Below are positions 2,600-52,760 of a DNA stretch of 60,003 nt, in pieces; the stretch's first letter is position 1, and each line of letters opens with the position of its first letter. The position numbers and the translations under genes were made by a program. Location: NCBI GenBank assembly GCA_021846685.1, contig JAJZWL010000006.1:1-60003 (forward strand), in the 5' to 3' direction. The DNA is from a bacterium. GTDB lineage: Bacteria > Patescibacteriota > Dojkabacteria > JAKAPS01 > JAJZLI01. The notes beneath the pieces were generated by a model. The model was not told the origin of the DNA. It was given only the letters and a program-made list of their open reading frames with translations, and searched no databases.

Positions 2600-3238
2600 A
2601 TGATATATATACCAAGTATAGATAATTCTGATACAAGATCAATAAAAGATCTAAGAAGTGAACAATATAGACTACAAAAACAAGCAGATAAACTTTTATC
2701 CCAAATAGATCTAAAAGATATCTTCTCAAAGTATGGAAAAGTTTCTGAGATAGGAGGAAGCTATAGCTATGGATTGATGGTTTATCCCGATATTGATATT
2801 GAAATAATAAATAATATCGTAACTAAAGATAATGCATCAAAACTTTTAAAAGATATAGCTTCTAAATCATATGTAAGAAAAGTCTCCTTTGTTGATAATG
2901 TGAATCATGTCTCTACTGTAAAAGGAAGACCAAAAGGTTATTGGTTTGGAATTGAAATACCTTTTGAAAAAGATAAATGGGGTATTGATTGTTGGATACA
3001 ACAACCTGATTGGATTGATGAAAGTATAGGTAATCCTAATATAATAGATAGTACTTATATAAATAGATTAAAAACACTTCCTCAAGAATCTAAAGATATT
3101 ATATTGTTAATAAAATATGAACTGATTATAAGAAAATTATATGGTTCAAAATTTAATTCAATAAATGTATATGATGCAGTTCTAAAGGATAATGTAAAAA
3201 CCATAGATCAATTTTTAACCCTATATGAGAGAATTTAG
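2600..3238 (+). CDS. Pol-beta-superfamily nucleotidyltransferase-fold protein
   Basis: GGSYSYGLMVYPDIDIEI fits the hG[GS]-x(9-13)-D-h-D-h nucleotidyltransferase signature. The rest of the protein is not assignable by eye. Confidence 0.5.
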   Translation: MIYIPSIDNSDTRSIKDLRSEQYRLQKQADKLLSQIDLKDIFSKYGKVSEIGGSYSYGLMVYPDIDIEIINNIVTKDNASKLLKDIASKSYVRKVSFVDNVNHVSTVKGRPKGYWFGIEIPFEKDKWGIDCWIQQPDWIDESIGNPNIIDSTYINRLKTLPQESKDIILLIKYELIIRKLYGSKFNSINVYDAVLKDNVKTIDQFLTLYERI

Positions 3239-3413
3239 TGTAGGGTGAGGATGAAATAATAACTAATGTTTTGAAATTATCAAGTAAGCCAGATTTGATT
3301 TTCCTTAACCTAAGTATAAATGTATGTAACTCATATAATACACGTAGATAGTCTATTCCAATCCAATAATAACCCTGAAATCAAAATTTAAAAAAATAAT
3401 TGTAGGTATTTGG

Positions 3414-3443
3414 GGTTCTGATATCATCTACGATACCCAGATT
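3414..3443. repeat. Repeated intergenic element copy B
   Basis: ggttctgatatcatctacgatacccagatt is near-identical to 2518-2547 and is likewise followed by a T-run (tgttttttcc). Confidence 0.45.
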
Positions 3444-3579
3444 TGTTTTTTCCTATTTTCATTTTAAGAAATTAATTATCACATATAAATGCTATTCTGA
3501 ATTTATATCCAAATGTCATAGTGTATGAGATACATACAATTGCTAGATTTAAAATTCTATATAATATATAATTAGAAAA

Positions 3580-3693
3580 CAATCAAGAGTGATGGGGAGA
3601 GAATTGGCTCAATGATCCATCCAGCAACCGAAAAGATCTAGTTCTATAGAAATTTTGCGGTGCTACATCCAACCATGAGGAGAGATTTGATCT
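3580..3693 (+). promoter_or_regulatory. SAM-I (S-box) riboswitch aptamer upstream of metK
   Basis: The conserved S-box blocks appear in the correct order: AUCAAGAG, GGGGAG, UGGCUCAAUGA, CCAGCAACC, GGUGCUACAUCC and the closing GAGAGAUUUGAU (P1 partner of AUCAA). It lies about 90 nt upstream of the metK start. Confidence 0.8.
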
Positions 3694-3724
3694 AGTTTTT
3701 AGATAAATTAATTGTATAAGATAA

Positions 3725-3762
3725 AATCTCTCTTGGTATAGATCCACATGGGAGATTTTTTT
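3725..3762 (+). terminator. Riboswitch expression-platform terminator (intrinsic)
   Basis: An 8-bp stem (aatctctc 3725-3732 pairs with gggagatt 3750-3757, including one G-U pair) is followed by TTTTT(T). It ends 20 nt before the metK ATG. Confidence 0.7.
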
Positions 3763-3781
3763 ATTTTATACAATCTAAATT

Positions 3782-4900
3782 ATGAACAATTCTTCATTTA
3801 AATATAAATCCTTATTTACTTCAGAATCAGTATGTGCTGGACATCCAGATAAAATTTGTGATCAGATTTCTGATGCTATTCTAGACCAGGCATTATCAAA
3901 TAATCCTGAATCTCATGTTGCAGTTGAAACCATGGTAACAAAGAATAAAGTGATAATAGTAGGAGAGGTGAGTACAAATACGAATATTGATTATACGGAT
4001 ATTGCTCGACAAGAGATAAAAAGATTAGGATATATAGATAACCTTAATTTTTCAGATAAATCTGATATAGAGGTATATATATCTAAGCAATCTTTAGAAA
4101 TCAAGAAAGGAGTAAACAATAATGGAGCAGGAGATCAGGGTATGATGTTTGGTTATGCATGTAGAGAAACACCTGAATATATGCCACTTCCAATTATGAT
4201 TGCACATAGTCTTGCAGAAAGTATTGATCATATAAGAGAAAGTAAGAAACTCCCATATCTATATCCAGATGGAAAGACTCAGGTTAGTGTGGAGTATAAA
4301 GATGGAAAACCATATAAAATTAATAATGTTGTAATAGCAGTTCCTCACAGTAAATCTATAGATATATCTAAAGTAAAAGATGATATATATAACCTTATAA
4401 TAAAAGAAATTTTAGATAAGTACGGTTTTAGTGTTGATAAAAGTGATGTAATTCTAAATGGTACCGGAGTATGGCATCAGGGAGGTCCAATTGCAGATGC
4501 TGGGCTGACCGGTAGGAAAATTATAGTTGATACATATGGAGGATATGCAAGGGTCGGAGGAGGTTGTTTTAGTGGAAAAGATCCGACTAAAGTAGATAGA
4601 TCAGGAGCATATGCAGCACGTTTTATTGCAAAAAATATAGTAGCTAATAATTTAGCAGACAAGGCAGAAGTGAGACTTGCTTATGTAATAGGTAAACCTC
4701 AACCTTTAATGAAGGAGGTAGAAACATTTGGAACATCAAAAAAAAGTGATAAGGTAATTAGAGATTATATGGATTCTATATTAGATACTTCTGTTATTGG
4801 AATAATAAATGCTTTTAACTTAAAAAGACCTATATATCTTAAAACTGCGTCATATGGTCATTTTGGAAGAGATTGTTTTCCTTGGGAGGATGTTATATAA
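3782..4900 (+). CDS. metK: S-adenosylmethionine synthetase
   Basis: Full-length match to MetK hallmarks: FTSESV..GHPDKICDQISDA, GAGDQGMMFGYA, GGPIADAGLTGRKIIVDTYGG, GGGCFSGKDPTKVDRSGAY and ASYGHFGR. Confidence 0.97.
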   Translation: MNNSSFKYKSLFTSESVCAGHPDKICDQISDAILDQALSNNPESHVAVETMVTKNKVIIVGEVSTNTNIDYTDIARQEIKRLGYIDNLNFSDKSDIEVYISKQSLEIKKGVNNNGAGDQGMMFGYACRETPEYMPLPIMIAHSLAESIDHIRESKKLPYLYPDGKTQVSVEYKDGKPYKINNVVIAVPHSKSIDISKVKDDIYNLIIKEILDKYGFSVDKSDVILNGTGVWHQGGPIADAGLTGRKIIVDTYGGYARVGGGCFSGKDPTKVDRSGAYAARFIAKNIVANNLADKAEVRLAYVIGKPQPLMKEVETFGTSKKSDKVIRDYMDSILDTSVIGIINAFNLKRPIYLKTASYGHFGRDCFPWEDVI

Positions 4901-5101: not shown

Positions 5102-5920
5102 ATGAAAATAATAATACTTTCAGATCACACACAGGATAAAATTAAAGAGAGTGAAAATAATAGAGAAAGGGTATTTCAGGAATTACTTAGTAAACGACGT
5201 AATAAGATAGAGGATAAATTAAATCATAGGAAAGAATTAAAATTAAAAATATCTCAAGATTTTTCAAATAAAAAGTATATACATGGATTTTATAATATAT
5301 TGAGAATCGTAGTTAATTACCTAACCCCTAATCCTAAAAAACCAGTTAAATCACTCTATAGTGAGAATGAGATAATATGGAAAAGTGGGAATATAGGAGA
5401 AAATAATGTTATAGATACTTTAAATAAACAATTAAGTAATGAGTGGACAGCTATTAAAGGTTATCGTAATAATAAAGGAGAAGTAGATTTATTATTAATA
5501 TGTCCATATGGAATTATTTCTATGGAAATTAAATATATTAATGGGCATATTTCCTGTAATGGGGATACCTGGTGGAAAGATAAATTTGATAAATATGGAA
5601 ATCTTGTTGAATCTAATATTAAGATTGGTGATAAGAATGGAAGATCTCCTAGTCAACAGGTTAATGAAGTTACTAATGCATTAGAACAGTTTTTAAAAAC
5701 GAGATCTATAAATAGACATATTTATAGAATGGTTATCTTTTCGCATAAATCATCTTTAATGAACAAAATACACAATCAAACAGTTGATTATATTGCTACT
5801 ATTAAAAATATAAATATATATAAATTTCTTTCAAAGAAAAATAATATGTTAGATGAAAATGAAATAGAAAAGATTGTAACTCTTATAAAAAAAGATCATG
5901 AGTTTCATAATAATAATTAA
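5102..5920 (+). CDS. NERD (nuclease-related) domain protein
   Basis: GEVDLLLICPYGIISMEIKY matches the NERD core (D-hhhh...G-hhh-h-E-h-K). The N-terminal region is charged and looks like a coiled coil. Confidence 0.55.
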   Translation: MKIIILSDHTQDKIKESENNRERVFQELLSKRRNKIEDKLNHRKELKLKISQDFSNKKYIHGFYNILRIVVNYLTPNPKKPVKSLYSENEIIWKSGNIGENNVIDTLNKQLSNEWTAIKGYRNNKGEVDLLLICPYGIISMEIKYINGHISCNGDTWWKDKFDKYGNLVESNIKIGDKNGRSPSQQVNEVTNALEQFLKTRSINRHIYRMVIFSHKSSLMNKIHNQTVDYIATIKNINIYKFLSKKNNMLDENEIEKIVTLIKKDHEFHNNN

Positions 5921-6077
5921 TTAAAGGCATCTCGGAATATAGAATAATACTATTCTTATTACTGTGGTTATAACAGAAATATCCAAGACAGAAGGTAAAT
6001 ATTAATAATTTCTTAATCTAGCATTAATTATCTATTGATACTGTATACTTGTAGTTTAATTTATTAAGGACAATATT

Positions 6078-7058
6078 ATGGATAAAGTAAAATTAGGATC
6101 ACAAGGATTAATGGTTTCAAAATTAGGTTTAGGTTGTATGGGTATGAGTGATTTTTATAAAGGAGGATCTGAGGAAGAATCAATACAAACAATAGAAAAA
6201 GCTCTAGAGTTAGGAATAAATTTTTTTGATACTGCAGATATGTATGGTCCATTTAAAAATGAAATTTTAGTTGGAAAGGCGTTAAAAAAATATAGAGATA
6301 AAGTTGTTATTGCAACTAAGTTTGGAAATGAAAGATCAGCAGATGGTTCTTTTATAAGAATAAATGGTACTCCTGATTATGTTAAATCTGCATGTGAAGG
6401 ATCATTAAAGAGATTAGGTGTAGATTGTATAGATTTATATTATATTCACAGAGTAGATAATACTGTCAATATAGAAGATACAGTTTCTGCTATGGCAGAT
6501 TTAGTGAAAGAAGGAAAAATTAAATATATAGGTATATCAGAGGCATCTTCTGAAACTATAAGAAAGGCTAATTTAACACATCCTATTACAGCAGTACAGA
6601 GTGAATATTCTTTATGGAGTAGAGATCCAGAGGATAGTGTTCTATCAACTGTAGCAGAATTGGGCATAGGTTTTGTAGCTTATTCTCCATTGGGAAGAGG
6701 ATTTCTCACAGGAAAGATAAAATCAATTGAAGATTTAGAAGATGGAGATACAAGAAAGTATAGTCCTAGATTCCAAGGAGAAAATTTTAATAAAAATTTA
6801 GAATTGGTTCATAAAGTAGAAAATTTAGCATCTAGGTTAAATGTATTACCTTCTCAAGTAGCTCTTGCTTGGGTACTTTCACAAGGAGATAATATTATTC
6901 CTATACCAGGAACAAAACATGTAAAATATTTAGAAGAAAATGTAGAAGCATTAAAACTACAACTTTCTAGTGAAGATTTAAACTTTTTAAATGAAGTTTT
7001 TACTAAAGATAGTGTTAAAGGAGACAGATATTCAGATATGAGTACTGTTAATAGATAG
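6078..7058 (+). CDS. Aldo/keto reductase family oxidoreductase
   Basis: [39 protein letters not shown] and IPIPGTK are canonical AKR motifs. Confidence 0.9.
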
Positions 7059-7205
7059 TATTAAAAATATTTTAAACGCTAATACAGTACAAGACTATGA
7101 GAAATCTTTTTATAAGATAAAAAGGTACTAAAATATACTTGAAGTATATCCTAATCTATATCATAATATAGATTGTTACTAATTAAATAAGATTATAATC
7201 AAAAT

Positions 7206-7769
7206 ATGAATAGTAAATTAGAAAAAACATCATTACTAGTAATGGATCTACAATCAGGAATTATTGATAATCTAGATGATAAGGATAGTTTTTTAAAGAA
7301 AGTTAAAAGTGCAGTTGAGAATGCTCATAATAATAATATTCAGGTTATATATGTTGTAGTTGGATTTCGTAGAGGGACACCTGAAATTAGCTCTTCTAAT
7401 AAATCATTCAGTGCTATGAGAGAAAGAGCTTCAAGTATGATGATTAATTCTGTTCCTGTAATAGATATTAAAGATAGTGATATATTAGTTACTAAACACA
7501 GAATTAGTGCTTTTAGTGGAAGTGATCTAGATATGGTTTTAAGAGCAGGTGGATTTGAAAACATAGTACTTTCTGGAATATCTACTAGTGGGGTAGTTTT
7601 ATCAACTACAAGAGAAGCTGCAGATAAAGATTTTAATATCACTATATTATCAGATCTTTGTTTTGATTCTGATCCAGAGATACATTCAATACTTATAAAT
7701 AAAGTTTTTCCAAGGCAAGCAAATGTCATTGATAGTAAGCAATGGATAGAAGAGATTAATTCTAAGTAA
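7206..7769 (+). CDS. Isochorismatase-family cysteine hydrolase (paralog 1)
   Basis: LLVMDLQSGII, VTKHRISAFSGSDLD and LSGISTSGVVLSTTREAADKDF fit the family pattern of catalytic Asp, Lys and a Cys-position loop. It is roughly 60-65% identical by eye to the ORF at 10062-10610. Confidence 0.85.
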   Translation: MNSKLEKTSLLVMDLQSGIIDNLDDKDSFLKKVKSAVENAHNNNIQVIYVVVGFRRGTPEISSSNKSFSAMRERASSMMINSVPVIDIKDSDILVTKHRISAFSGSDLDMVLRAGGFENIVLSGISTSGVVLSTTREAADKDFNITILSDLCFDSDPEIHSILINKVFPRQANVIDSKQWIEEINSK

Positions 7770-11510: not shown

Positions 11511-11584
11511 ATATATAATTAACTTTTCATATATTTAAATTATATTTTGAAACAAATTATAATTTTTAGGTGTATAATGTATAT

Positions 11585-12979
11585 ATGCGTATTAAAATTA
11601 AATATATTATTCTTTGTGTTCTATTATTTTTTGGAGGTATATTTTTTATATATTTTAATAATATATTTAATTTAAGATACTTTCCTAATAATAACGCACT
11701 TATAATATATCCCAATCATGTTATACAACAAGGAATGAATAGTGGGAAAAATAATGTTTTTGGAAATGGATATATAAATAAAAGTTTTAAATTTAATTCG
11801 AAGTCTTCAATTGTAAGTACTCCTACTATCATGAATGGTGTAGCTTATTTTGGGGCAAATAATGACTATGTTTATGCTATATCAGATTTAACTGGAAAAC
11901 TTATATGGAAATATAAAACAGATAATCAAGTAATGACACAACCAATAATTGCAAATGGTATGTTATATGTTGGTTCAGGTAATAATTTTTTTCAAAAAGG
12001 TAATGTAGTAAGAGGAACAGGACAAAATGCTATATATGCATTATCTCTGTCAACAGGAAAATTCATTTGGAAGTACAATACTTCAGGAGAAAATATGTCA
12101 TCATTTGTATATAAAAAGAATACTATTTATGAAGCTAATGGGAACAGTAAATTTTATGCTATTAATGCAAAAAATGGCCATATGAATTGGAAAACAAGTT
12201 TTAAAGGAATAGATTCTATGTCTTCTTTAAATCTATCTGGAAATTTTGTATATTTTGGATCTGGAAATATAGATACTACTCAGTACATTAATTCTATTAA
12301 TATAAAAATACATAAATTGCAATGGTCTAAACCTCTGCCTATGTCTTTTGGAGGTGTTACTGATAATTCTCCTTCTTCTAATTCAAAATATGTTGTTATA
12401 GAAGGTTTAGCTTTAACATCTACTGTAAATAAATTTAATCAAGTTGTGTATGTTCTAAATAAGAGAACTGGACAAATACAATGGACATATAAATTAGGAG
12501 TTGGAATTCGACCTAGAAATATGGAAACAGCAAATTCAATAATTGTAGGGAATAATTTATATACTGGAAATACTGTAGGTAATGGACGATTTTACTCTTT
12601 TAATATAAATACAGGAAAAATGAATTGGTATGTAAAATTATATGGAGATCAAAAAAGTGCGGCTGTACTACAAAATGGAATACTGTATTTAGCTGATTCT
12701 TATTCAAATTTTTATTCTATTAAAGCTTCAAATGGAATAGTATTAGGTATACATAAATTTATATCAACAGAAAAAATGAATGCTTTTACTGCTTCAAATC
12801 CTACATTAGTAGATAATGAAATATATATAGGAAATCTTAATGGTTATTTATATGCTTTTCCTATAAATTATCTTTATCAATATAATTTTCAACTATATAA
12901 ATACTATACATGGTATGCTATAGGAAATATATTTGGAGGAAGAATAGATTTTCAATCCTTTATTAAAAATATTATCTAG
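11585..12979 (+). CDS. Membrane-anchored PQQ-like (BamB-type) beta-propeller repeat protein
   Basis: An N-terminal TM helix is followed by recurrent blade motifs (YVYAISDLTGKLIWKYKT, IYALSLSTGKFIWKYNT, FYAINAKNGHMNWKT, FYSFNINTGKMNWYV). I moved the start to the ATG at 11585; the track ORF begins at a GTG at 11570. Confidence 0.75.
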   Translation: MRIKIKYIILCVLLFFGGIFFIYFNNIFNLRYFPNNNALIIYPNHVIQQGMNSGKNNVFGNGYINKSFKFNSKSSIVSTPTIMNGVAYFGANNDYVYAISDLTGKLIWKYKTDNQVMTQPIIANGMLYVGSGNNFFQKGNVVRGTGQNAIYALSLSTGKFIWKYNTSGENMSSFVYKKNTIYEANGNSKFYAINAKNGHMNWKTSFKGIDSMSSLNLSGNFVYFGSGNIDTTQYINSINIKIHKLQWSKPLPMSFGGVTDNSPSSNSKYVVIEGLALTSTVNKFNQVVYVLNKRTGQIQWTYKLGVGIRPRNMETANSIIVGNNLYTGNTVGNGRFYSFNINTGKMNWYVKLYGDQKSAAVLQNGILYLADSYSNFYSIKASNGIVLGIHKFISTEKMNAFTASNPTLVDNEIYIGNLNGYLYAFPINYLYQYNFQLYKYYTWYAIGNIFGGRIDFQSFIKNII

Positions 12980-12981
12980 AA

Positions 12982-14007
12982 CTATTTTACAAAAGCAGGA
13001 GATTCCATAGGTGTAGATAAAGCAACCCCTGATGGATCATTAAGCATGTTTGGGCCAATACCTGCTTGTCCAGTAATTCCGTATTGCCATACTATTTTTT
13101 TAGTTTTAGGATTCAAAACAAAAACTCTATCATTATGATCATCAACTATTAGATAATTTCCATTAGGTAGTAATTGTGCGGAAGAAGGATGATTTAGAGT
13201 ATTTGCACCCTGTGGTTGATATGTCCATATTGCTTTTCCTGCTTTTGTAATTACTTGTATTTTACCAGGATTTACCCAATCTGTTGATAAAATATTCCCA
13301 TTTGGAAGAGTTACTGCATCTGAAGGATAAAATTCTGGTATATTTACTATCCAATTTATAGCTTGAGTCTTTAAACTTACATCAATTGCTGAATGATTTG
13401 CAACATCTGTTATCAAGACACTTTGACCAGGAAGAGGCATTGCATCATCTGGAGCAGCTAAATATCCAGGTTTTGTACTTACAACTCCCGTGTGACCATA
13501 TTGCCATACTATTTGACCAGCTTTATTAACCTCAATTACTCGCATATTACCTGCATCTGTTATAAGTGTATTCCCATTTGGTAATTTAAAAGAATCATCT
13601 AAATATTTACCTAGATATCCTGCTGTATACCCATGAGTACCTAAATGACCATAACTCCATACTATTTGCTTTGTCTTAGTATTTATTTCAATAACCCTGC
13701 TATAATTTTCTTGATTAACAATTAATCTGTTTTTAGTATATACTTGAACATCATCAGGATCTTGTATCCCTGTCATTTGCCAAATAATCTTCTTTTGAGG
13801 ATTAACTTCTATAATTCTATTATTTTTAGAATCACAAATATATATATTTTGTCCCAAAGGACCGTTGTTTACTGCGACTTTTGCCTTTATTTTCTTTTTT
13901 ATTATCTTTGGAGAAACTTTTTTATTATGGATATTCTTAAAAAAAATACCTATAGCTAAAATTAGTAATAATATAATAATAATTATTATTGCTTTTTTAT
14001 TTTTCAT
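12982..14007 (-). CDS. Membrane-anchored beta-propeller protein (tandem paralog A)
   Basis: An N-terminal TM anchor is followed by about 6 repeats of the type NNRIIEVNPQKKIIWQ, RVIEVNKAGQIVWQYGH and DRVFVLNPKTKKIVWQYG. It is roughly 80-85% identical by eye to 14353-15396. I chose the ATG at 14007; the track ORF starts at a TTG at 14022. Confidence 0.7.
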   Translation of the reverse strand: MKNKKAIIIIIILLLILAIGIFFKNIHNKKVSPKIIKKKIKAKVAVNNGPLGQNIYICDSKNNRIIEVNPQKKIIWQMTGIQDPDDVQVYTKNRLIVNQENYSRVIEINTKTKQIVWSYGHLGTHGYTAGYLGKYLDDSFKLPNGNTLITDAGNMRVIEVNKAGQIVWQYGHTGVVSTKPGYLAAPDDAMPLPGQSVLITDVANHSAIDVSLKTQAINWIVNIPEFYPSDAVTLPNGNILSTDWVNPGKIQVITKAGKAIWTYQPQGANTLNHPSSAQLLPNGNYLIVDDHNDRVFVLNPKTKKIVWQYGITGQAGIGPNMLNDPSGVALSTPMESPAFVK

Positions 14008-14188
14008 TTTTTTATAATACAAAATATGGTCCTCATTATCACATACAAGACAATTAAAATCCAGTAAAATATAAATTTAATCAGTTCATAATCTATTATT
14101 TATTATTATATAGATTATTTTGTTCTGAATTATTTGAATTTTCAATAAAGATCTTGAAATAATATACTTAATTGTATTTCTAATGAGG

Positions 14189-14214
14189 AAAAACAATTAT
14201 TTCTTAAGAAATAA
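14189..14214 (-). terminator. Candidate intrinsic terminator between the tandem propeller paralogs
   Basis: An 18-nt perfect palindrome, ttatttcttaagaaataa (14197-14214), is followed on the minus strand by TTGTTTTT. It lies about 140 nt downstream of the stop of 14353-15396. Confidence 0.4.
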
Positions 14215-14352
14215 TAATCTTATCCTTATTTTCTAAATTCAACAATGCTTTGCTTTCTTATAATTACTCATATATTATACCCTTGCAGACTAAAAGTTTT
14301 AGATTAAAACAAGATGAATTTGTAATTATTTATGATATTAAATCAATAAAAT

Positions 14353-15396
14353 TTAATATGCAGGAGACTGCATTGGAGTAGATAAAGCAACTCCTGACGG
14401 ATCATTAAGCATATTTGGTCCAATACCTGCTTGTCCGGTAATTCCATATTGCCATACTATTTTTTTAGTTTTAGGATTTAATACAAAAACTCTATCATTG
14501 TGATCATCAACTATTAGATAATTGCCATTTGGTAAAAGTTGGGTTGAAGAAGGATGATTTAAAGTATTTACACCTTGTGGCTGATATGTCCAGACAACCT
14601 GACCTGCTTTAGTAATTTCTTGTATTTTCCCAGGATTTACCCAATCTGTTGATAAAATATTTCCATTAGGTAGAGGAACTGCATCAGAAGGGTATAATTG
14701 CGGAATATTTATTTGCCATAATATTTTATTATTAGAAGGATTTACATCTATAGCTGTATGATTTCCAATATTTGTTATTAGTATACTTCCTCCAGGAAGA
14801 GGCATTGCATCATTTGGAGCATTTAAATATCCAGGCTGATTACTTCTAACACCAGTATGACCATATTGCCATACTATTTGACCAGCTCTATTAACTTGGA
14901 TTACCCTCATGTTAACATCATCAGTTATAAGAGTATTTCCACTAGGTAATCTGAAAGAATCATCTACATATTTACCAAGATATCCTGCTGTGTACCCTGG
15001 AATGCCTAAATGACCATAACTCCATACTATTTGCTTTGTCTTAGTATTTATCTCAACAACCTTACTATAATCCTCTTGATTAACAATTAATCTATTTTTG
15101 GCGTATACTTGAACATCATCAGGATCTTTTATTCCTGTCATTTGCCAAATAATCTTCTTTTGAGGATTAACTTCTATAATTCTATTATTTTTAGAATCAC
15201 AAATATATATGTTTTGTCCTAAAGGTCCATTGTTTATTGCAACTTTTGCCTTTATTTTCTTTACTACCTTAACAACCTTTTTATTGCTTATTTTAGTAGG
15301 TATTTTTTTATAATGATTATATAGGTATATGGATATCAATAAAACAAATATTAAAATTACAATAATTAAAATTGATTTCTTTGTTTTCAATTTCAT
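14353..15396 (-). CDS. Membrane-anchored beta-propeller protein (tandem paralog B)
   Basis: Same architecture as 12982-14007. The last ~55 residues and the first propeller blade are nearly identical between the two copies. Confidence 0.7.
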   Translation of the reverse strand: MKLKTKKSILIIVILIFVLLISIYLYNHYKKIPTKISNKKVVKVVKKIKAKVAINNGPLGQNIYICDSKNNRIIEVNPQKKIIWQMTGIKDPDDVQVYAKNRLIVNQEDYSKVVEINTKTKQIVWSYGHLGIPGYTAGYLGKYVDDSFRLPSGNTLITDDVNMRVIQVNRAGQIVWQYGHTGVRSNQPGYLNAPNDAMPLPGGSILITNIGNHTAIDVNPSNNKILWQINIPQLYPSDAVPLPNGNILSTDWVNPGKIQEITKAGQVVWTYQPQGVNTLNHPSSTQLLPNGNYLIVDDHNDRVFVLNPKTKKIVWQYGITGQAGIGPNMLNDPSGVALSTPMQSPAY

Positions 15397-16479: not shown

Positions 16480-17430
16480 TTAAAAACTTTTACTGGATAA
16501 AAGATTTCTCACTTCTTCGATAGAGTTTGTATCCATTAATTCTATTCGTAATGCAGATGCTCCTTCCCAATTATTAACATATATTTTAAAAAATTTTTTA
16601 AGTATTTGAAAAGATTTATAGTCACCTTCTTTTTCATATCTATCTAAGTGGAAAAGAAGTATATTTATCATTTCTAAAGGAGAATGCTCTTTTACATTAG
16701 GATCAAAAATAAAAATATCCTTAAATATTCCTCTTCCTATCATTACTCCATCAACCCCAGTTTTCGAAGATAATTCAATACCTTCAGCATATGTAGATAC
16801 ATCTCCATTTCCAATAATTAAAGTTTTCGAAGATAATTTATTACGAAGTTGTACTACTTTTGAAATTTCTTCCCATCTGGCAGGAACTTTACTCATTTCT
16901 CTTACTGTACGAGCATGAATACTAATAGCTGATAATTCTTGCTTTAAAAGAAAACTAAACCAGTCTTCTGTTATAAGATGATCTATTCCTAATCTAGTTT
17001 TGACACTTACTGGAAGATTTCCAGCTCCTTTTTTAGTAGCATTTATAATATCTGCCACTTCTGAATATTGCCCAATTAATCCACCACAAAAACCACGTGC
17101 TACAATACCTTTTTCTGGACATCCCATATTAATATCAATTCCATCAAACCCCATCTGAGCTATATCTTTGGCAGCTTTATAATAAAAATCTAAATTTCTA
17201 CCCCATATTTGAGCTACTAATGGAATATTACTATTCTTATTACGATGAAGCCTTCTTATAACACGCTCTCTTCCTGGAGAAGATAACCCCTCTATTGAAA
17301 CAAATTCAGTAAAAAAAACATCAGGAGGAGATACTTTTTCAACTACATCACGGAAAACAATATCTGTTACGTCATCCATTGGAGCAAGAACAAAAAAAGG
17401 CTTTTTTAAATTAGTCCAAAAATTTAACAT
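16480..17430 (-). CDS. tRNA-dihydrouridine synthase
   Basis: LAPMDDVTDIVFR, the catalytic-Cys loop DINMGCP, VSVKTRLG, the IHARTV region and GNGD are Dus family motifs. Confidence 0.9.
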   Translation of the reverse strand: MLNFWTNLKKPFFVLAPMDDVTDIVFRDVVEKVSPPDVFFTEFVSIEGLSSPGRERVIRRLHRNKNSNIPLVAQIWGRNLDFYYKAAKDIAQMGFDGIDINMGCPEKGIVARGFCGGLIGQYSEVADIINATKKGAGNLPVSVKTRLGIDHLITEDWFSFLLKQELSAISIHARTVREMSKVPARWEEISKVVQLRNKLSSKTLIIGNGDVSTYAEGIELSSKTGVDGVMIGRGIFKDIFIFDPNVKEHSPLEMINILLFHLDRYEKEGDYKSFQILKKFFKIYVNNWEGASALRIELMDTNSIEEVRNLLSSKSF

Positions 17431-29508: not shown

Positions 29509-30312
29509 ATGAGTACAAGATTAGATACAATAGAATACTTAGACAAAAATATAGGATTTTTCCCAATATTTAATAATACTATTACAAATGCATTTTCTTG
29601 GGGGGAAAATGTTGGGAATATGTCCTTTAACTATGGAGACAGAAAAGAAGTTAAATTGAGAATTATTAAATTTTTACAAAAAATATCTATTAATAATATA
29701 CAAAGTATTGTGAATATAGAACCAGAACATAGTGATAATATAGTTTCTATAACTCGAAATAAATATAATTCTTTAAGATCTACTCCTGTAGGCAAAAGCA
29801 TTAACTGCGATACATTATTTACAAACACTAAAAATATAGCTTTATCTATAAAACCTGCAGATTGCACAGTTTCAATAATAAAAGCAATTGATATAAATAA
29901 CAAAATAATAATAGGATTAATTCATGCAGGAAGAAAAGGATTAGATCTATCTTTACCATATAAATCAATAGAATATTTAATACAACATTATGAAGTTAAT
30001 ATATCTAATATACAAATTGGGATAATACCATCAATTGGATTTGATAATTATTTTATTCAGAATATAGAAGAATTAAAGAATCCTATAATCTGGGAAAATT
30101 ATAGTAAGAAAAAAAATAATTATATATATCTAGATCTAAAATCTCTACTATTAAAACAATATCAAGATATAGGAATAAAAAATACACAAATACAATATTA
30201 TGATCTAGATACATTCAATTATGCAAAAGAAAAAATAAGCTTTTCTCATAGATATTCTCAAATGCATAAAGAAACTGCTAATGGTAGAATGATAGTAGTA
30301 GTTAAAATTTAA
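29509..30312 (+). CDS. YfiH/PgeF (DUF152, laccase-domain) family protein
   Basis: KPADCTVSI, LIHAGRKG and the FSHRY region match the His/Cys/His site pattern of this family. I chose the ATG at 29509 rather than the upstream TTG at 29464. Confidence 0.65.
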   Translation: MSTRLDTIEYLDKNIGFFPIFNNTITNAFSWGENVGNMSFNYGDRKEVKLRIIKFLQKISINNIQSIVNIEPEHSDNIVSITRNKYNSLRSTPVGKSINCDTLFTNTKNIALSIKPADCTVSIIKAIDINNKIIIGLIHAGRKGLDLSLPYKSIEYLIQHYEVNISNIQIGIIPSIGFDNYFIQNIEELKNPIIWENYSKKKNNYIYLDLKSLLLKQYQDIGIKNTQIQYYDLDTFNYAKEKISFSHRYSQMHKETANGRMIVVVKI

Positions 30313-31601
30313 TTAAAAGAATAAATATTCCCATTTCCTGTAATAGCATAAAAAATACCATTATAAAAACTCAAACCTGAAGCGATTTCATTTCCACCAA
30401 GGGTTCTTTTTGCAATAAATGATCCATTATTAGATTTTAATACATAAATATTCCCTGCAGTAGTAACAGCATACACTAATTTATTATTTATTATAAATGG
30501 TGCGTTTATCATGCTATTTACATGATATCTCCATAATATCTTTTTAGTATTTATATTCACTGCGAATATATCTCTTACAGTATTAGATGATGTATATAGA
30601 GTATTTCTAATAATAGTAGATACACTTCCTTCCATAGGGTCAGATGGTAGATTTATCAATCCATTTCCTTCATTTATAGTCCATATAATTTGACCAGTAT
30701 TAGCATTAATCTTATAAAGATACTCATTCCCCACATCAGCTTTATTATTAGTAAGATGAGTAGCATTGGTATATATATATCCTGCAGAATAGGTTGGAGT
30801 TGTATCATCTAAAGCTCCAGTAATATTAGGGAAATTATCTTTCCACTGAATTTTCTTGGTTTTTATATTTATATCAAAAAAAGTATAAGGAGATGCACTT
30901 CCAAAATATATATTATTATGTACTAATACAGCCGATGACATAGACACTATTGAACCTAGATTAATTGACCATAATAATTTCCCAGAAGAAGCAGATAAGG
31001 CATAAAATTTCTTATTTCCATTAGCAAAATATATTATTCCATTTTTATATACAGGAGTAGGCATATCCTCTCCTGGTGTACTATATTTCCACATAATCTT
31101 TCCTGTTTCAAGATTTATTCCATACATGGCATTAGGACCTAATCCTCTATATAAAACTGCCTTATTCTTTAAATCATATTTTATACTATTACCTGTCCCT
31201 ACATAGACCATATCTTGAGTTGGTACTACTACAGGATTTGTCATTACCCAATTAGGTAGTTGATCATGCCATAAAACCTTAAAATTACTTCTTTTAATTG
31301 CATAAAGAGCTCCTGTAGTATTTGATTGGTTCATTACTCCAACATAGATGATATCTCCACTCACAATAGGAGTAGTATCAAATCCTACTCCATTAATATT
31401 TTTTGCTAATATTACATGTGATAATAATGTCATTTCAGCTCCAGTAACAATATTATTATCATTCCCATTATTAGAATATTGATTATAACTACTATAGTAA
31501 TACGTTGTATTAGGAACAATTTTTTGAAGATGTATAATTAAAATCAGAGTAACTACTATAAGGACAAGTACTGTTAAATATATATAATAAGTTTTTTTCA
31601 C
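30309..31601 (-). CDS. Membrane-anchored PQQ-like (BamB-type) beta-propeller repeat protein
   Basis: A TM anchor plus blade motifs (LYAIKRSNFKVLWHDQ, MYGINLETGKIMWKYST, FYALSASSGKLLWSI, IYVLKSNNGSF). It is a paralog of 11585-12979. Confidence 0.75.
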   Translation of the reverse strand: MKKTYYIYLTVLVLIVVTLILIIHLQKIVPNTTYYYSSYNQYSNNGNDNNIVTGAEMTLLSHVILAKNINGVGFDTTPIVSGDIIYVGVMNQSNTTGALYAIKRSNFKVLWHDQLPNWVMTNPVVVPTQDMVYVGTGNSIKYDLKNKAVLYRGLGPNAMYGINLETGKIMWKYSTPGEDMPTPVYKNGIIYFANGNKKFYALSASSGKLLWSINLGSIVSMSSAVLVHNNIYFGSASPYTFFDINIKTKKIQWKDNFPNITGALDDTTPTYSAGYIYTNATHLTNNKADVGNEYLYKINANTGQIIWTINEGNGLINLPSDPMEGSVSTIIRNTLYTSSNTVRDIFAVNINTKKILWRYHVNSMINAPFIINNKLVYAVTTAGNIYVLKSNNGSFIAKRTLGGNEIASGLSFYNGIFYAITGNGNIYSFN

Positions 31602-34230: not shown

Positions 34231-35844
34231 TTAGTCAAACATATCCTTTTCAAAATTAAATGCAAATGACCTATTATAAAGCCTCAAATCTCCAAAAAAT
34301 AAAAGAGACTCTCCTATATTAAATTTTAAAAGAGAATCTTTCTCTTCATTTGATAATATAAATGTTTTTGAAATATTATCTAAATTCACCTTCTCTTGTT
34401 TCATTAACACTTTTAAAGATGTATTTGCAATGATAGATCTACCTTCTTCAGAAGATATAAAATCTTCTATATCCTGAGTTATATATATTAATCCCAAATT
34501 ATATTTTCTTGCTCTTTTAGATATCATTTTCAAGTAAGTTAATAACTCTTTACTTTCAAATAACCTATGAGCCTCATCTATAAAAACTTCTCTTTTTGAT
34601 TTGCCATCATGAAATTTCCATACAAAATTAAGAACAATATACATCATTAAAGATATGTTATACGTATCAAGTTTAGAAATATCAAAAACAATTAAATTAT
34701 CTTTATTGGATATCTCTATATTTGTCTTTTCTGAATATAAGGTAGCATTTGATCCTGCAGAAATATTATATATTTCTAAAGCCATTTTACTTTTATTTTT
34801 TTCCAAATAATTATATAAATCTTTAAACGTAGGTTCTTTTATAGTCCTAAATACTTCTACTAATGCTTTGTCCAATTCATTACCATCAAAATATGTACAG
34901 GATCTTTGTAAAAAACTTTTAATAAATTGAATCTTATCTTCAATACTTTCACCTTGATATAAGTCAAAAGGATTAATCTTGTATTTACTGTTATGAGAAA
35001 ATTCAATTCTTTTACCTTTTAAATTTTTACATAAATTTTTATATTCTCCCTCTGGATCAATAATAACAACTTTTATTCCCTTTGCTATCAATCTTATAAT
35101 AGTAGTTTTTGCAAAAAAACTTTTTCCAGATCCAGATTTAGCAAAGATTACTCCATTGTAGTTTTCATAATTGAAAATATCAAAAAGAGTTAATGAATTA
35201 GTTATAGAATTAACACCATATATAATTCCTTTATAATCAGTAAACCCATTAATCACAAAAGGAGTAGCTGCTGATATTGATGAGGAGTTTAATACAAAAG
35301 TTTTATTTCCCTTATTTATATTAAAAGGTACAATACTTTTATAACCAATGGATTCTCTGAAATCTAAAGAATACATTGTAAATGATTTTGAAGATGCTAA
35401 TAACTCTAAATTTTTAGCATTTATTTTTAAATTATAAAGATTAGTAGAATACAACGTAATATAAAAGCTCAAAAGAGAGGAACCTTCTTTCCCTGAAACT
35501 AAAATCCTTCTGAAATCTTCTAGTGCTGTTACCTCTAAATCTAAAGAAATATCATTTAATCTACCTTTTGAAAGACGTGAATGTCTTTGAGACTCTAAGG
35601 AAGATAATCGAATCTTTATAGAATTTAGAACTTCATCTTTTTTTAAAGGAGATATATATTGAGTTAATATTAAATTTCCACCTAATGAAAATAATTCAGA
35701 AACAAAAAACTTATTTATTTTCACAGGGAAATCTGATATATAATAAGTTTTATAAAATTTATTATTAACTTTTATATTATTCTTTTCCTCTTTTATATTT
35801 TTAGGAAGTAATCTATCCTCTTTGGTTTTATAATAAATTTTCAT
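34231..35844 (-). CDS. VirB4/TrsE/PrgJ-like type IV secretion ATPase (central and ATPase domains)
   Basis: Walker A with the downstream IFAKSGSGKSFFAKTTIIRLIAKGIKVVIIDPEGEY (typical VirB4 block), Walker B VFIDEAHRL, and the N-terminal FYKTYYISDFPVKI block. Confidence 0.75.
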   Translation of the reverse strand: MKIYYKTKEDRLLPKNIKEEKNNIKVNNKFYKTYYISDFPVKINKFFVSELFSLGGNLILTQYISPLKKDEVLNSIKIRLSSLESQRHSRLSKGRLNDISLDLEVTALEDFRRILVSGKEGSSLLSFYITLYSTNLYNLKINAKNLELLASSKSFTMYSLDFRESIGYKSIVPFNINKGNKTFVLNSSSISAATPFVINGFTDYKGIIYGVNSITNSLTLFDIFNYENYNGVIFAKSGSGKSFFAKTTIIRLIAKGIKVVIIDPEGEYKNLCKNLKGKRIEFSHNSKYKINPFDLYQGESIEDKIQFIKSFLQRSCTYFDGNELDKALVEVFRTIKEPTFKDLYNYLEKNKSKMALEIYNISAGSNATLYSEKTNIEISNKDNLIVFDISKLDTYNISLMMYIVLNFVWKFHDGKSKREVFIDEAHRLFESKELLTYLKMISKRARKYNLGLIYITQDIEDFISSEEGRSIIANTSLKVLMKQEKVNLDNISKTFILSNEEKDSLLKFNIGESLLFFGDLRLYNRSFAFNFEKDMFD

Positions 35845-50535: not shown

Positions 50536-51162
50536 TCAACTTAATATAAAATAAGTATTTTTTTCTAAAATAAAACTGTCTTTTAATTTAAATTTAGAGT
50601 CATGTATCAACTGACTTATCTCTTGTTCTTCAAATCTATGTACATATCTCAAATCTATATTTTTATCCCAAGATAATAGATAATCAGAAGGTGAAATCCT
50701 AGTTGAAATACTTTTAATATTAAAATCCCAAATAGAGAATATAAATAATCCATTTTTGTCTAATATTTTTTTTATATCTTTAAATAATTTTAATCTGATT
50801 TTATAATCAGGAATATGATGTAATACTGCTATTAAAAATATTTTATTAAACTTTCCTAAATTCAAATTCCAATCAACTTCAGTAATATCTAAATTTAAAA
50901 AAGTATGCTCTGGATATTTTTCTTTTGCCAAGGAAGTAAGTGTTGAAGAAAAATCTATACCAGTATATTGAGAACTTGCAACAAATTCAGCAAATCTTCC
51001 ATTTCCAGCCCCTATATCCAATACACTATCACATTCTTTAATATATTCTTTTAATTTATAAAAACTCTCCCAGGGAAAGGATCTTTTTGAAGAAAAAGAT
51101 CCTCCGAAATCTTCATAAAATTTTTTGTTTATTTCTAATAATTCCTTTTTATTGAGTTTCAT
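50536..51162 (-). CDS. Trm9/ALKBH8-like class I SAM-dependent methyltransferase
   Basis: FSSKRSFPW (compare HFSSTRHTPW in ALKBH8 and HFSQTRYKPW in Trm9), SAM motif LDIGAGNG, IAVLHH (compare IAVIHH/IAVVHH), LLSW and RYVHRFEEQEI (compare RYYHVFREGEL). Confidence 0.7.
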   Translation of the reverse strand: MKLNKKELLEINKKFYEDFGGSFSSKRSFPWESFYKLKEYIKECDSVLDIGAGNGRFAEFVASSQYTGIDFSSTLTSLAKEKYPEHTFLNLDITEVDWNLNLGKFNKIFLIAVLHHIPDYKIRLKLFKDIKKILDKNGLFIFSIWDFNIKSISTRISPSDYLLSWDKNIDLRYVHRFEEQEISQLIHDSKFKLKDSFILEKNTYFILS

Positions 51163-51179
51163 AATATAATTATACTATT

Positions 51180-52760
51180 ATGTTCCCACAAAAAGATAAA
51201 AACAATATAAAACTGAGTGAAATAACTAATGGAAATAATACGCCCAGATCAGAAATAATAAGTAATTATCGCACAATCTGTAAAGAAAGAAATTTAAAAG
51301 AGGATAATCTATTTATAGAGAAACTAAAAATTAAACCTACCAGAACCCTTTCAGGAGTAGTCCCAATAACAGTATTAACTAAGCCCTTTCCTTGTCCAGG
51401 GAAGTGTATATTCTGTCCTGATGACATTATGATGCCTAAAAGCTACTTAACTCTTGAACCTGGAGCACAAAGAGCACTAATGAATAAATTTGATCCATAT
51501 TTACAAGTAAAAAATAGAATTCAAGCATTACAAAATATTGGACACAAAACAGAAAAAATAGAACTATTAGTATTAGGAGGAACTTGGAGTGTATATACAA
51601 GAGTATATCAGGAATGGTTTATTAAAAGATGCCTCGATGCTATGAATGAATTTCAATTTAAAGAATATAAATATACTAAAAATGTAAAAAATTTTGATAA
51701 TAAAATTATAGATAATGAACCTTTAATAAAAGAATGGGATATAGAGGAACTTAAAAAAGCTCAAATAATTAATGAAACTGCAAAATACAGATGCATTGGA
51801 ATAACCCTTGAAACTAGACCTGATAGAATCTCTGAAAAAGAGGTTATACATCTAAGAGAATTGGGAGCAACAAAAATACAATTAGGAATACAAACCACTA
51901 ATGATGAAATATTAAAAGAAAATAAGAGAGGAGAAGGATCAGAAGAACAGAAAAATTCTATTAATCTTCTAAGAAAAGCAGGATTTAAAATACAAATACA
52001 CTGGATGCCAAATCTATATAAATCTACTCCTGAAATGGATAAAAAAGATATTGAAATAATCTACAATAATAAATCCTATATGCCCGATGAAATTAAAATA
52101 TATCCTTGTTCTGTCATTGAAAGTGCTGAATTATACACTTATTGGAAAGAAAAAAAATTTAAACCTTACTCTGAAGAAGATCTAATGGATGTATTGATTC
52201 ATGCAAAAACAGTAGTTCCTATGTACTCTAGAATAAATAGATTAATCAGAGATATACCATCTACATATATAGAAGCTGGTAATAAAAAAACAAATTTCAG
52301 ACAAATAGTTCAATTAGAAATGGCTAAAAAAGGACTGTATTGTAAATGCATACGATGTAGAGAAATTAAAAATGAAGAAATCAAAGATATTACTTTTGAC
52401 TTATATGAATATGAAACAGAAGTATCTTTTGAAAAATTCCTATCCTTTAATTCTGAAAAGAAAATATTAGGATTTTTACGACTTTCTCTTCCAAAAGATA
52501 AAAATCACTTTATAGAAGAATTAAACAACTCTGCAATAATAAGAGAGGTTCATATATATGGACCGGCTTTAGCTATAAAAGAAATATCTTTATCTGCTCA
52601 ACATCTTGGATTAGGTACAAAACTTATTAAAAAAGCCGAAGAAATATCTAAAAAAAATAATTTTGAAAAAATATCTGTAATATCAGGAATTGGAACTAGA
52701 GAATATTATAGAAAAAGAGGTTATACTTTAAATAAATTATACCAATCAAAAAACATATAA
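51180..52760 (+). CDS. elp3: Elp3-family radical SAM / GNAT enzyme (tRNA U34 cm5-type modification)
   Basis: Radical SAM cluster CPGKCIFCP, a TIM-barrel region (IGITLETRPD, KIQLGIQT) and the C-terminal GNAT block IREVHIYG...QHLGLGTKLIKKAEEI...ISVISGIGTREYYRKRGY. Confidence 0.9.
   Translation: MFPQKDKNNIKLSEITNGNNTPRSEIISNYRTICKERNLKEDNLFIEKLKIKPTRTLSGVVPITVLTKPFPCPGKCIFCPDDIMMPKSYLTLEPGAQRALMNKFDPYLQVKNRIQALQNIGHKTEKIELLVLGGTWSVYTRVYQEWFIKRCLDAMNEFQFKEYKYTKNVKNFDNKIIDNEPLIKEWDIEELKKAQIINETAKYRCIGITLETRPDRISEKEVIHLRELGATKIQLGIQTTNDEILKENKRGEGSEEQKNSINLLRKAGFKIQIHWMPNLYKSTPEMDKKDIEIIYNNKSYMPDEIKIYPCSVIESAELYTYWKEKKFKPYSEEDLMDVLIHAKTVVPMYSRINRLIRDIPSTYIEAGNKKTNFRQIVQLEMAKKGLYCKCIRCREIKNEEIKDITFDLYEYETEVSFEKFLSFNSEKKILGFLRLSLPKDKNHFIEELNNSAIIREVHIYGPALAIKEISLSAQHLGLGTKLIKKAEEISKKNNFEKISVISGIGTREYYRKRGYTLNKLYQSKNI

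Follow-up and report, generated by a model that had tools for sequence, protein, structure and literature searches.

A divergent gene pair encoding Elp3 and a Trm9-like methyltransferase points to a probable Elongator-type wobble-uridine pathway in Patescibacteria and Chloroflexota

The 60,003-nucleotide (nt) stretch of a Dojkabacteria genome analysed here (contig JAJZWL010000006.1, positions 1 to 60,003; hereafter the window) contains two divergently oriented genes separated by 17 nt, one encoding an Elp3 protein and the other a class I S-adenosylmethionine (SAM)-dependent methyltransferase homologous to Trm9 (Table 1). An initial annotation, made from the sequence alone, had described this layout, and its coordinates are exact. 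The two enzymes probably form a module acting on the wobble uridine of tRNA (U34), in which Elp3 makes 5-carboxymethyluridine (cm5U34) and the Trm9-like methyltransferase esterifies it to 5-methoxycarbonylmethyluridine (mcm5U34), a reading to which we assign a probability of about 0.68. Bacteria with the pair would then probably use an "Elongator-type" pathway. In the proposed sequence of events, a stand-alone Elp3, working with no other Elongator subunits, would use its radical SAM centre and GNAT-bound acetyl-CoA to place a carboxymethyl group on C5 of U34, giving cm5U; the divergently encoded methyltransferase would transfer a methyl group from SAM to the carboxyl group of cm5U, giving the methyl ester mcm5U; and if the cell thiolates position 2, the product would be the 2-thiolated form, mcm5s2U. 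The family identity of both proteins, the conservation of catalytic residues and the conservation of the gene pair are directly observed; the substrates, the product, any independence from Trm112 and the promoter layout are inferred.

The methyltransferase has only generic Pfam matches (Methyltransf_11, 23, 25 and 31), and its scores on the more specific NCBIfam models are low: 36.9 against a cutoff of 103 for UbiG, 30.6 against 185 for BioC, 19.4 against 216 for UbiE and 30.6 against 400 for CFA synthase. Every named NCBIfam family, these four among others, falls far short of its cutoff, and a UbiE/UbiG assignment was rejected on that ground. Three methods concur that the top match in the PDB is Trm9 of Yarrowia lipolytica, solved in the Trm9-Trm112 complex (5cm2_Z). 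A single-sequence phmmer search places this chain first (E = 3.9e-7, residues 26-203 aligned); a profile of 35 family sequences recovers it with E = 5.5e-32 and 114 bits, the runner-up scoring 83.6 bits; and Foldseek, queried with an AlphaFold model of the protein (mean predicted local distance difference test score, pLDDT, 94.7), returns it at rank 1 (E = 1.1e-13, target-normalised TM-score 0.78). In a reciprocal check, the profile of the bacterial family gives Y. lipolytica Trm9 113 bits and a control class I methyltransferase (L009) 36.6 bits. The Trm9-specific C-terminal half is also conserved. Sequence, profile and fold agree with the initial annotation, which had called the protein Trm9/ALKBH8-like, and the protein does not fall in with a non-tRNA methyltransferase family.

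Conservation of individual residues was judged in two alignments (A1 and A2) covering the bacterial family, Dehalococcoidia-type proteins and Y. lipolytica Trm9. Eight residues of yeast Trm9 have been reported whose mutation abolishes function (Létoquart et al., PMC4678810). Six of them, R29, D72, H116, W145, W168 and R241, are needed for activity in yeast (PMC4678810), and their equivalents in the window protein show full invariance or a conservation of at least 90% in both alignments, except W165, which is W or F in A1. H115 is not among the residues needed in yeast (PMC4678810); the H115-H116 pair does not vary in A2, and in A1 its conservation is at least 90%. R29 is proposed to position the cm5U carboxylate (PMC4678810). 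The peptides that had been singled out by eye as Trm9/ALKBH8 motifs, FSSKRSFPW, LDIGAGNG, IAVLHH and RYVHRFEEQEI, are all present, the last of them (residues 172-182) keeping the arginine and the first tyrosine of the Trm9 motif. To judge from these alignments, the methyltransferase is a bacterial Trm9 homologue whose carboxylate- and uracil-binding site is predicted to be intact.

Several observations weigh against the proposed route to mcm5U, and some of them favour an alternative in which the pair does act on U34 but the methyltransferase yields a bacterial-specific xm5U derivative and not the mcm5 ester; a different Elp3-derived side chain, another atom or a neighbouring nucleotide might be methylated. 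Two of the eight Trm9 residues are not simply retained. The position of Y243, whose yeast mutant keeps ~10% activity (PMC4678810), is V174 in the window protein and is variable across the family, but is Y in the Dehalococcoidia-type proteins. The equivalent of N271, a residue proposed for uracil recognition (PMC4678810), is N202, which is shifted by one alignment column; Asn occurs in most relatives and is absent in two of them (P0007 and P0023). Identity to Trm9 is only ~23-24%, and archaeal U34 modifications have been argued to be "similar but not identical" to mcm5s2U (PMC2584109). Eukaryotic and archaeal Trm9 need Trm112, and neither the window nor any of 89 related loci yielded a credible Trm112/YcaR-like open reading frame (ORF) when searched with a CxxC...CxxC zinc-knuckle pattern and by phmmer with an Escherichia coli YcaR probe. 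More generally, Trm9 leads the remaining class I methyltransferases in Foldseek by a small margin, none of the curated models gives this protein a name, and public labels for the family are inconsistent, ranging over "class I SAM-dependent methyltransferase", "UbiE", "TRM9" and "ALKBH8"; the "TRM9" and "ALKBH8" labels are already attached to some members in JGI automated annotation. Neither cm5U nor mcm5U has been shown in any bacterium (PMC7663514). Against a product other than the mcm5 ester stand the proposed contacts to the carboxylate and the uracil ring (R29, H115/H116, R241 and W145), which are invariant or nearly so, and the selection of Trm9 as best match by three independent methods. 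This alternative is considered unlikely.

The second protein is assigned by a curated model: NCBIfam TIGR01211 (Elp3), whose cutoff is 350 bits, scores it at 506.8 bits (E = 6e-152), the match spanning residues 30-526 of the protein and positions 36-522 of the 522 in the model. The initial annotation had recognised a clear Elp3 homologue from the cluster motif CPGKCIFCP and a C-terminal GNAT block, and the domain searches agree with it, finding the cluster motif, a PF00583 match and the acetyl-CoA motif QHLGLG; the Pfam matches to Radical_SAM, Radical_SAM_C and GNAT all exceed their thresholds. The acetyl-CoA motif aligns with QHMGYG of Methanocaldococcus infernus Elp3 (MinElp3) and QHRGLG of Dehalococcoides mccartyi Elp3 (DmcElp3), giving the consensus QHxGxG. 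The cysteine triad that follows the Radical_SAM_C domain has the CxCxxC form typical of bacterial and archaeal Elp3. Among solved structures the best relative is MinElp3 (6iaz; E = 1.4e-117, 397 bits), followed by DmcElp3 (5l7j; E = 1e-94) and then by eukaryotic Elp3, with near full-length alignment to the solved Elp3 structures. The window protein has a long N-terminus of the archaeal type, ~50 residues longer than that of DmcElp3: MinElp3 aligns from residue 33, and DmcElp3 starts at residue 52. The N-terminal region of archaeal Elp3 is reported to be important for tRNA binding and to be missing in DmcElp3 (PMC6367351).

Two further features of this protein and its model are worth recording. 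Relative to MinElp3 and DmcElp3, the window Elp3 carries a Lys/Asn-rich insertion of ~27 residues (162-188), which breaks its PDB alignments into two segments. The NCBI product name of TIGR01211 reads "5-carboxymethylaminomethyl modification", which is the product name of MnmEG; Elp3 is reported to make the carboxymethyl (cm5) group instead, and the mismatched name propagates to bacterial annotations.

The combination of an Elp3-related radical SAM protein with a SAM-dependent methyltransferase also recalls MnmL (YtqA/YhcC) and MnmM (YtqB) of Bacillota, which have the same gene logic, act on the C5 side chain of U34 and are encoded by adjacent or fused genes; they belong to other families and use other chemistry, MnmL acting on 5-carboxymethylaminomethyluridine (cmnm5U) supplied by MnmEG (PMC13228596). 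The window pair could in principle be such a module downstream of MnmEG, the radical SAM enzyme trimming cmnm5U to 5-aminomethyluridine (nm5U) and the methyltransferase making 5-methylaminomethyluridine (mnm5U). A weak match of the window Elp3 to the MnmL model TIGR01212 (49.8 bits) is in keeping with this, but it falls far short of the 180 bits set as that model's cutoff; the Elp3 model, by contrast, is passed. The window protein has a GNAT domain and an acetyl-CoA motif, and MnmL is not known to have a GNAT domain. The methyltransferase, for its part, has no MnmM-type Pfam match, and no MnmM-named chain occurs among its top PDB matches. The MnmL/MnmM assignment was rejected on the curated cutoffs, and a module of this kind is very improbable here.

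The initial annotation had asked whether the adjacency of the two genes is unique to this genome; it recurs widely, in species genomes of Chloroflexota and Patescibacteria, in metagenomes and in D. mccartyi. When one representative genome was scanned for each GTDB species, 80 loci with a relative of the methyltransferase emerged, which by record title were ~45 from Chloroflexota (mostly Anaerolineae), ~25 from Patescibacteria (Saccharibacteria, Dojkabacteria, Gracilibacteria, Paceibacterota and Portnoybacteria) and 10 from other or unclassified metagenome-assembled genomes. Three have too little upstream DNA, leaving 77 evaluable loci, of which 70 pair the methyltransferase with Elp3 (69 divergent, 1 tandem), at a median spacing of ~20 nt between longest-ORF starts. 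Metagenomic relatives with 60%, 46%, 36%, 32%, 32% and 37% identity in the methyltransferase all have Elp3 divergently upstream (6/6), and in four of the six the gene context is wholly different. Scanning metagenomes with one Elp3 protein gave just two short loci, which brought nothing new. When the ORFs of 89 loci were clustered, no third conserved neighbour emerged, no other real family being present in more than 12 loci; apparent additional shared "families" around the pair proved to be alternative-frame ORFs inside Elp3 and were discarded. The conserved unit is a two-gene module and does not reflect general synteny.

The breadth of this pairing bears on the possibility that the methyltransferase acts on something with no relation to tRNA (a small molecule, a lipid or a protein) and adjoins Elp3 only through a shared, compact bidirectional promoter. 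The generic nature of its Pfam and NCBIfam matches (UbiG-, BioC- and CFA-synthase-like) speaks for such a substrate, as do the seven genomes that have the methyltransferase but no Elp3 within the flank, a point that also counts against the U34 module. Yet the adjacency outlasts complete turnover of the flanking genes, spans two phyla and persists down to ~17-20% identity in the methyltransferase; every model of a non-tRNA family scores far under its cutoff; and the half of the protein specific to Trm9 is retained. A substrate other than tRNA therefore seems highly implausible.

Some loci depart from the common arrangement. In six Anaerolineae (L015, at 3219..3947, and L025, L030, L035, L047 and L077) a gene stands between Elp3 and the methyltransferase. 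It was considered as a tRNA thiolase and rejected, its CC...CxxC and ECGLH motifs being those of a CysH-type reductase of adenosine 5'-phosphosulfate or 3'-phosphoadenosine 5'-phosphosulfate (APS/PAPS). One Gracilibacteria genome (L072, 276..2697) has the pair co-directional, Elp3 followed by the methyltransferase ~10 nt away. In L008 (4239..5855) three separate ORFs make up Elp3 beside an intact methyltransferase, so that the gene is either a pseudogene or broken by frameshifts that arose in assembly; GAF/PAS sensors are encoded on the same contig, as is a protein with faint multihaem-cytochrome Pfam matches. On the 3' side of the methyltransferase, ~9-12 loci share a recurrent trio consisting of an LDcluster4 (LOG-like) protein, a protein of ~87 amino acids (aa) and an MJ0043_C-domain protein (for example, L007 6679..8844 and L009 4267..7753); the MJ0043_C protein of L009 has faint to weak intein/LAGLIDADG Pfam matches.

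DmcElp3, the one bacterial Elp3 with solved structures, belongs to the same enzyme family as the window Elp3 and has the same divergent Trm9-like partner. Its sequence, partly rebuilt from the PDB alignment, served as a query that recovered D. mccartyi protein P0125 at 98% identity, together with over 2,400 Elp3 proteins of the Dmc type (E <= 1e-120). On the D. mccartyi chromosome CP019867.1 (L090), a class I methyltransferase of 224 aa (5283..5957, - strand) is encoded in divergent orientation to Elp3 (6001..7380, + strand) and 43 nt upstream of it. The divergent pairing is present in all four evaluable Dehalococcoidia-type Elp3 loci (L090, L091, L095 and L096), L094 having been left out of the count for want of upstream DNA. 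The methyltransferases of these loci score 106-123 bits on the bacterial-family profile and keep the R, D, HH, W, W and RYY residues, at 17-20% identity to the window protein. For the D. mccartyi methyltransferase alone, Trm9 ranks only seventh among PDB matches, so that this protein is classed as a more divergent family member. DmcElp3 differs from the window Elp3 in its length (459 aa) and in having neither the N-terminal extension nor the insertion. Three of the four loci also encode QueH, another tRNA-modification enzyme, and a GNAT acetyltransferase, both a short distance (a few genes) farther upstream.

Comparison with eukaryotes and archaea shows both the likeness and its limits. Eukaryotic Elongator with Trm9-Trm112 or ALKBH8-TRMT112 comprises the same two catalytic families in the same proposed order, and eukaryotic Elp3 has the same domain order, radical SAM then GNAT. 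Of the functional Trm9 residues, R29, D72, H115/H116, W145, W168 and R241 are kept in the window protein, and Y243 is replaced by V. Unlike in eukaryotes, the subunits Elp1, 2, 4, 5 and 6 are not expected here, as in other prokaryotes according to the literature; unlike eukaryotic Trm9, the methyltransferase is minimal, at 208 aa, and has no Trm112 gene nearby; and the physical, divergent pairing of the genes has no eukaryotic counterpart. Archaea resemble the window in having a stand-alone Elp3, and genes for Elp3 and a Trm9-family protein are clustered in Sulfolobus solfataricus (PMC2584109, PMC6144793). MinElp3, the closest structure to the window Elp3, is archaeal and shares its long N-terminus. 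Trm9 of the archaeon Haloferax volcanii, here compared by description, is a validated partner of Trm112 (PMC6144793), whereas no Trm112 was seen in the present loci. The initial annotation had suggested a complete eukaryote/archaea-style pathway: the coupling of Elp3 to a Trm9-like protein holds up; as to completeness, no Trm112 was found in the window or the related loci, and no 2-thiolation enzyme is linked to the pair.

Wobble modifications of the mcm5U type are regarded in textbooks as belonging to eukaryotes and some archaea, and cmnm5U and mnm5U as belonging to bacteria. A 2020 review confined bacterial Elp3 to Dehalococcoides and found no evidence there for xcm5U derivatives (PMC7663514), and a 2026 paper mentions Elp3 in "numerous bacteria" and says no more. 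A search for literature linking Elp3 or Trm9 with Patescibacteria, the candidate phyla radiation (CPR), Chloroflexota or MnmE/MnmG found none; the primary DmcElp3 paper lay outside that search and may mention the D. mccartyi pairing. The bacterial pairing of Elp3 with a Trm9-like protein is thus best described as a well-supported, testable prediction and not as a new mechanism. It couples a Trm9 homologue to Elp3 across two very large, mostly uncultured phyla and in D. mccartyi, and so predicts mcm5U as the end product. It also names a second gene for study next to the D. mccartyi Elp3, which has already been purified and crystallised. If correct, it would give a function to the family now carrying four different public labels, and it is relevant to the question of whether Trm112 is dispensable for Trm9.

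A broader proposal is that in Patescibacteria and Chloroflexota Elp3 and a Trm112-independent Trm9 constitute the main or only xm5U34 route, replacing MnmE/MnmG, and that the pair was inherited as a unit from a common ancestor. This extension is tentative and, on present evidence, rather doubtful. MnmE, MnmG and MnmA are not encoded among the large ORFs of the window, which is uninformative for the rest of the genome. Should both replacement and joint ancestry be borne out, mcm5(s2)U would be a major bacterial modification and no hallmark of eukaryotes and archaea, and the pair would tie Patescibacteria and Chloroflexota together as a character that both share.

The spacer between the two start codons is too short to hold a Shine-Dalgarno sequence and contains none. 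It contains a TATAAT box on each strand, as the initial annotation had noted from TATAAT-like hexamers in both orientations; the two boxes overlap face to face as the palindrome TATAATTATA. The closest of the metagenomic relatives above (L001, 60% identity) has an identical 17-nt spacer, and another (L004, 46% identity) has the palindromic ATCATTATAATGAT in its spacer. At 26% G+C such hexamers are not significant by themselves. Across the window, TAWAAT ends 4-13 nt before the start codon in 19 of 57 long-ORF genes, against an expected ~4-7%, with distances peaking at 6-9 nt, and a Shine-Dalgarno-like motif precedes only 7 of the 57. Leaderless transcription thus appears common in this genome, and the suggestion of nearly leaderless mRNAs made in the first reading of the sequence is a reasonable one that fits this window-wide pattern. 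A scan for consensus -35/-10 promoters showed no enrichment (10 sites against 18.9 in shuffled sequence), so that the case for a promoter is made by the -10 boxes and the window-wide pattern. The spacer is proposed to be a bidirectional promoter giving two leaderless mRNAs; because the -10 boxes overlap within a shared 17-nt control region, the two genes would probably be leaderless and co-regulated.

Table 1. Features of the Elp3/methyltransferase locus and other genes of the window. Residue numbers refer to the window proteins; A1 and A2 are the two alignments described in the text.
Feature	Position	Strand	Remarks
Trm9-like class I SAM-dependent methyltransferase, 208 aa	50536..51162	-	ORF; proposed cm5U34 carboxyl O-methyltransferase
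RYVH (R172, Y173, V174, H175)	50638..50649	-	Equivalent to Trm9 R241-Y242-Y243-H244
IAVLHH, residues 111-116	H115-H116 at 50815..50820	-	Equivalent to Trm9 H115/H116
D70	50953-50955	-	Yeast Trm9 D72; conserved
SAM-binding motif I LDIGAGNG, residues 48-55	50998..51021	-	D70 lies downstream
FSSKRSFPW, residues 23-31	51070..51096	-	Contains R27
R27			Yeast Trm9 R29; invariant in A1 and A2
H116			Yeast Trm9 H116; conserved; essential in yeast
W145			Yeast Trm9 W145; conserved
W165			Yeast Trm9 W168; conserved; W or F in A1
R172			Yeast Trm9 R241; conserved
V174			Yeast Trm9 Y243; replaced
N202			Yeast Trm9 N271; one alignment column off
Divergent spacer, 17 nt	51163..51179		AATATAATTATACTATT; between the two start codons
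TATAAT box, + strand	51165-51170	+	9 nt before Elp3 ATG
TATAAT box, - strand	complement of 51169-51174	-	6 nt before methyltransferase ATG
Elp3, 526 aa, radical SAM + GNAT/KAT	51180..52760	+	Predicted tRNA U34 carboxymethyl synthase
Radical SAM domain, residues 72-276	51393..52007	+	Pfam PF04055, 49.6 bits
Cluster motif CPGKCIFCP, residues 72-80	51393..51419	+	C72-x3-C76-x2-C79; aligns with the MinElp3 and DmcElp3 motif
Lys/Asn-rich insertion, residues 162-188	51663..51743		Relative to MinElp3 and DmcElp3
Radical_SAM_C domain, residues 302-382	52083..52325	+	Pfam PF16199, 67 bits
Cys triad CKCIRC, residues 388-393			After Radical_SAM_C; aligns with CRCIRC of MinElp3 and DmcElp3
GNAT/KAT domain, residues 416-515	52425..52724	+	Pfam PF00583 (Acetyltransf_1), 24.5 bits against a cutoff of 20.7
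SAM synthetase (MetK)	3782..4900
Dihydrouridine synthase (Dus)	16480..17430
PQQ-like beta-propeller paralogues	11570..15396 and 30309..31601		Four paralogues, three clustered
TraG/VirD4-like P-loop coupling protein	34231..35844	-	Pfam PF19044

The window has a G+C content of 26.4% and contains no tRNA genes or other Rfam families. By Pfam, the gene directly 3' of Elp3 encodes the large subunit of exonuclease VII (XseA), and the upstream neighbours are an MscS-type channel and a DHH phosphoesterase; beyond XseA, the annotation of the syntenic locus L001 gives the small subunit (XseB) and a transpeptidase/penicillin-binding protein. The presence of XseA/XseB and a penicillin-binding protein as neighbours indicates that the host is bacterial, and the named relatives closest to the methyltransferase come from Patescibacteria. 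Elsewhere in the window, MetK and Dus bear on SAM supply or tRNA modification, and neither is linked to the Elp3/methyltransferase pair. The window also encodes four PQQ-like beta-propeller paralogues and a TraG/VirD4-like coupling protein, the latter a possible sign of a locus for type IV secretion or conjugation.

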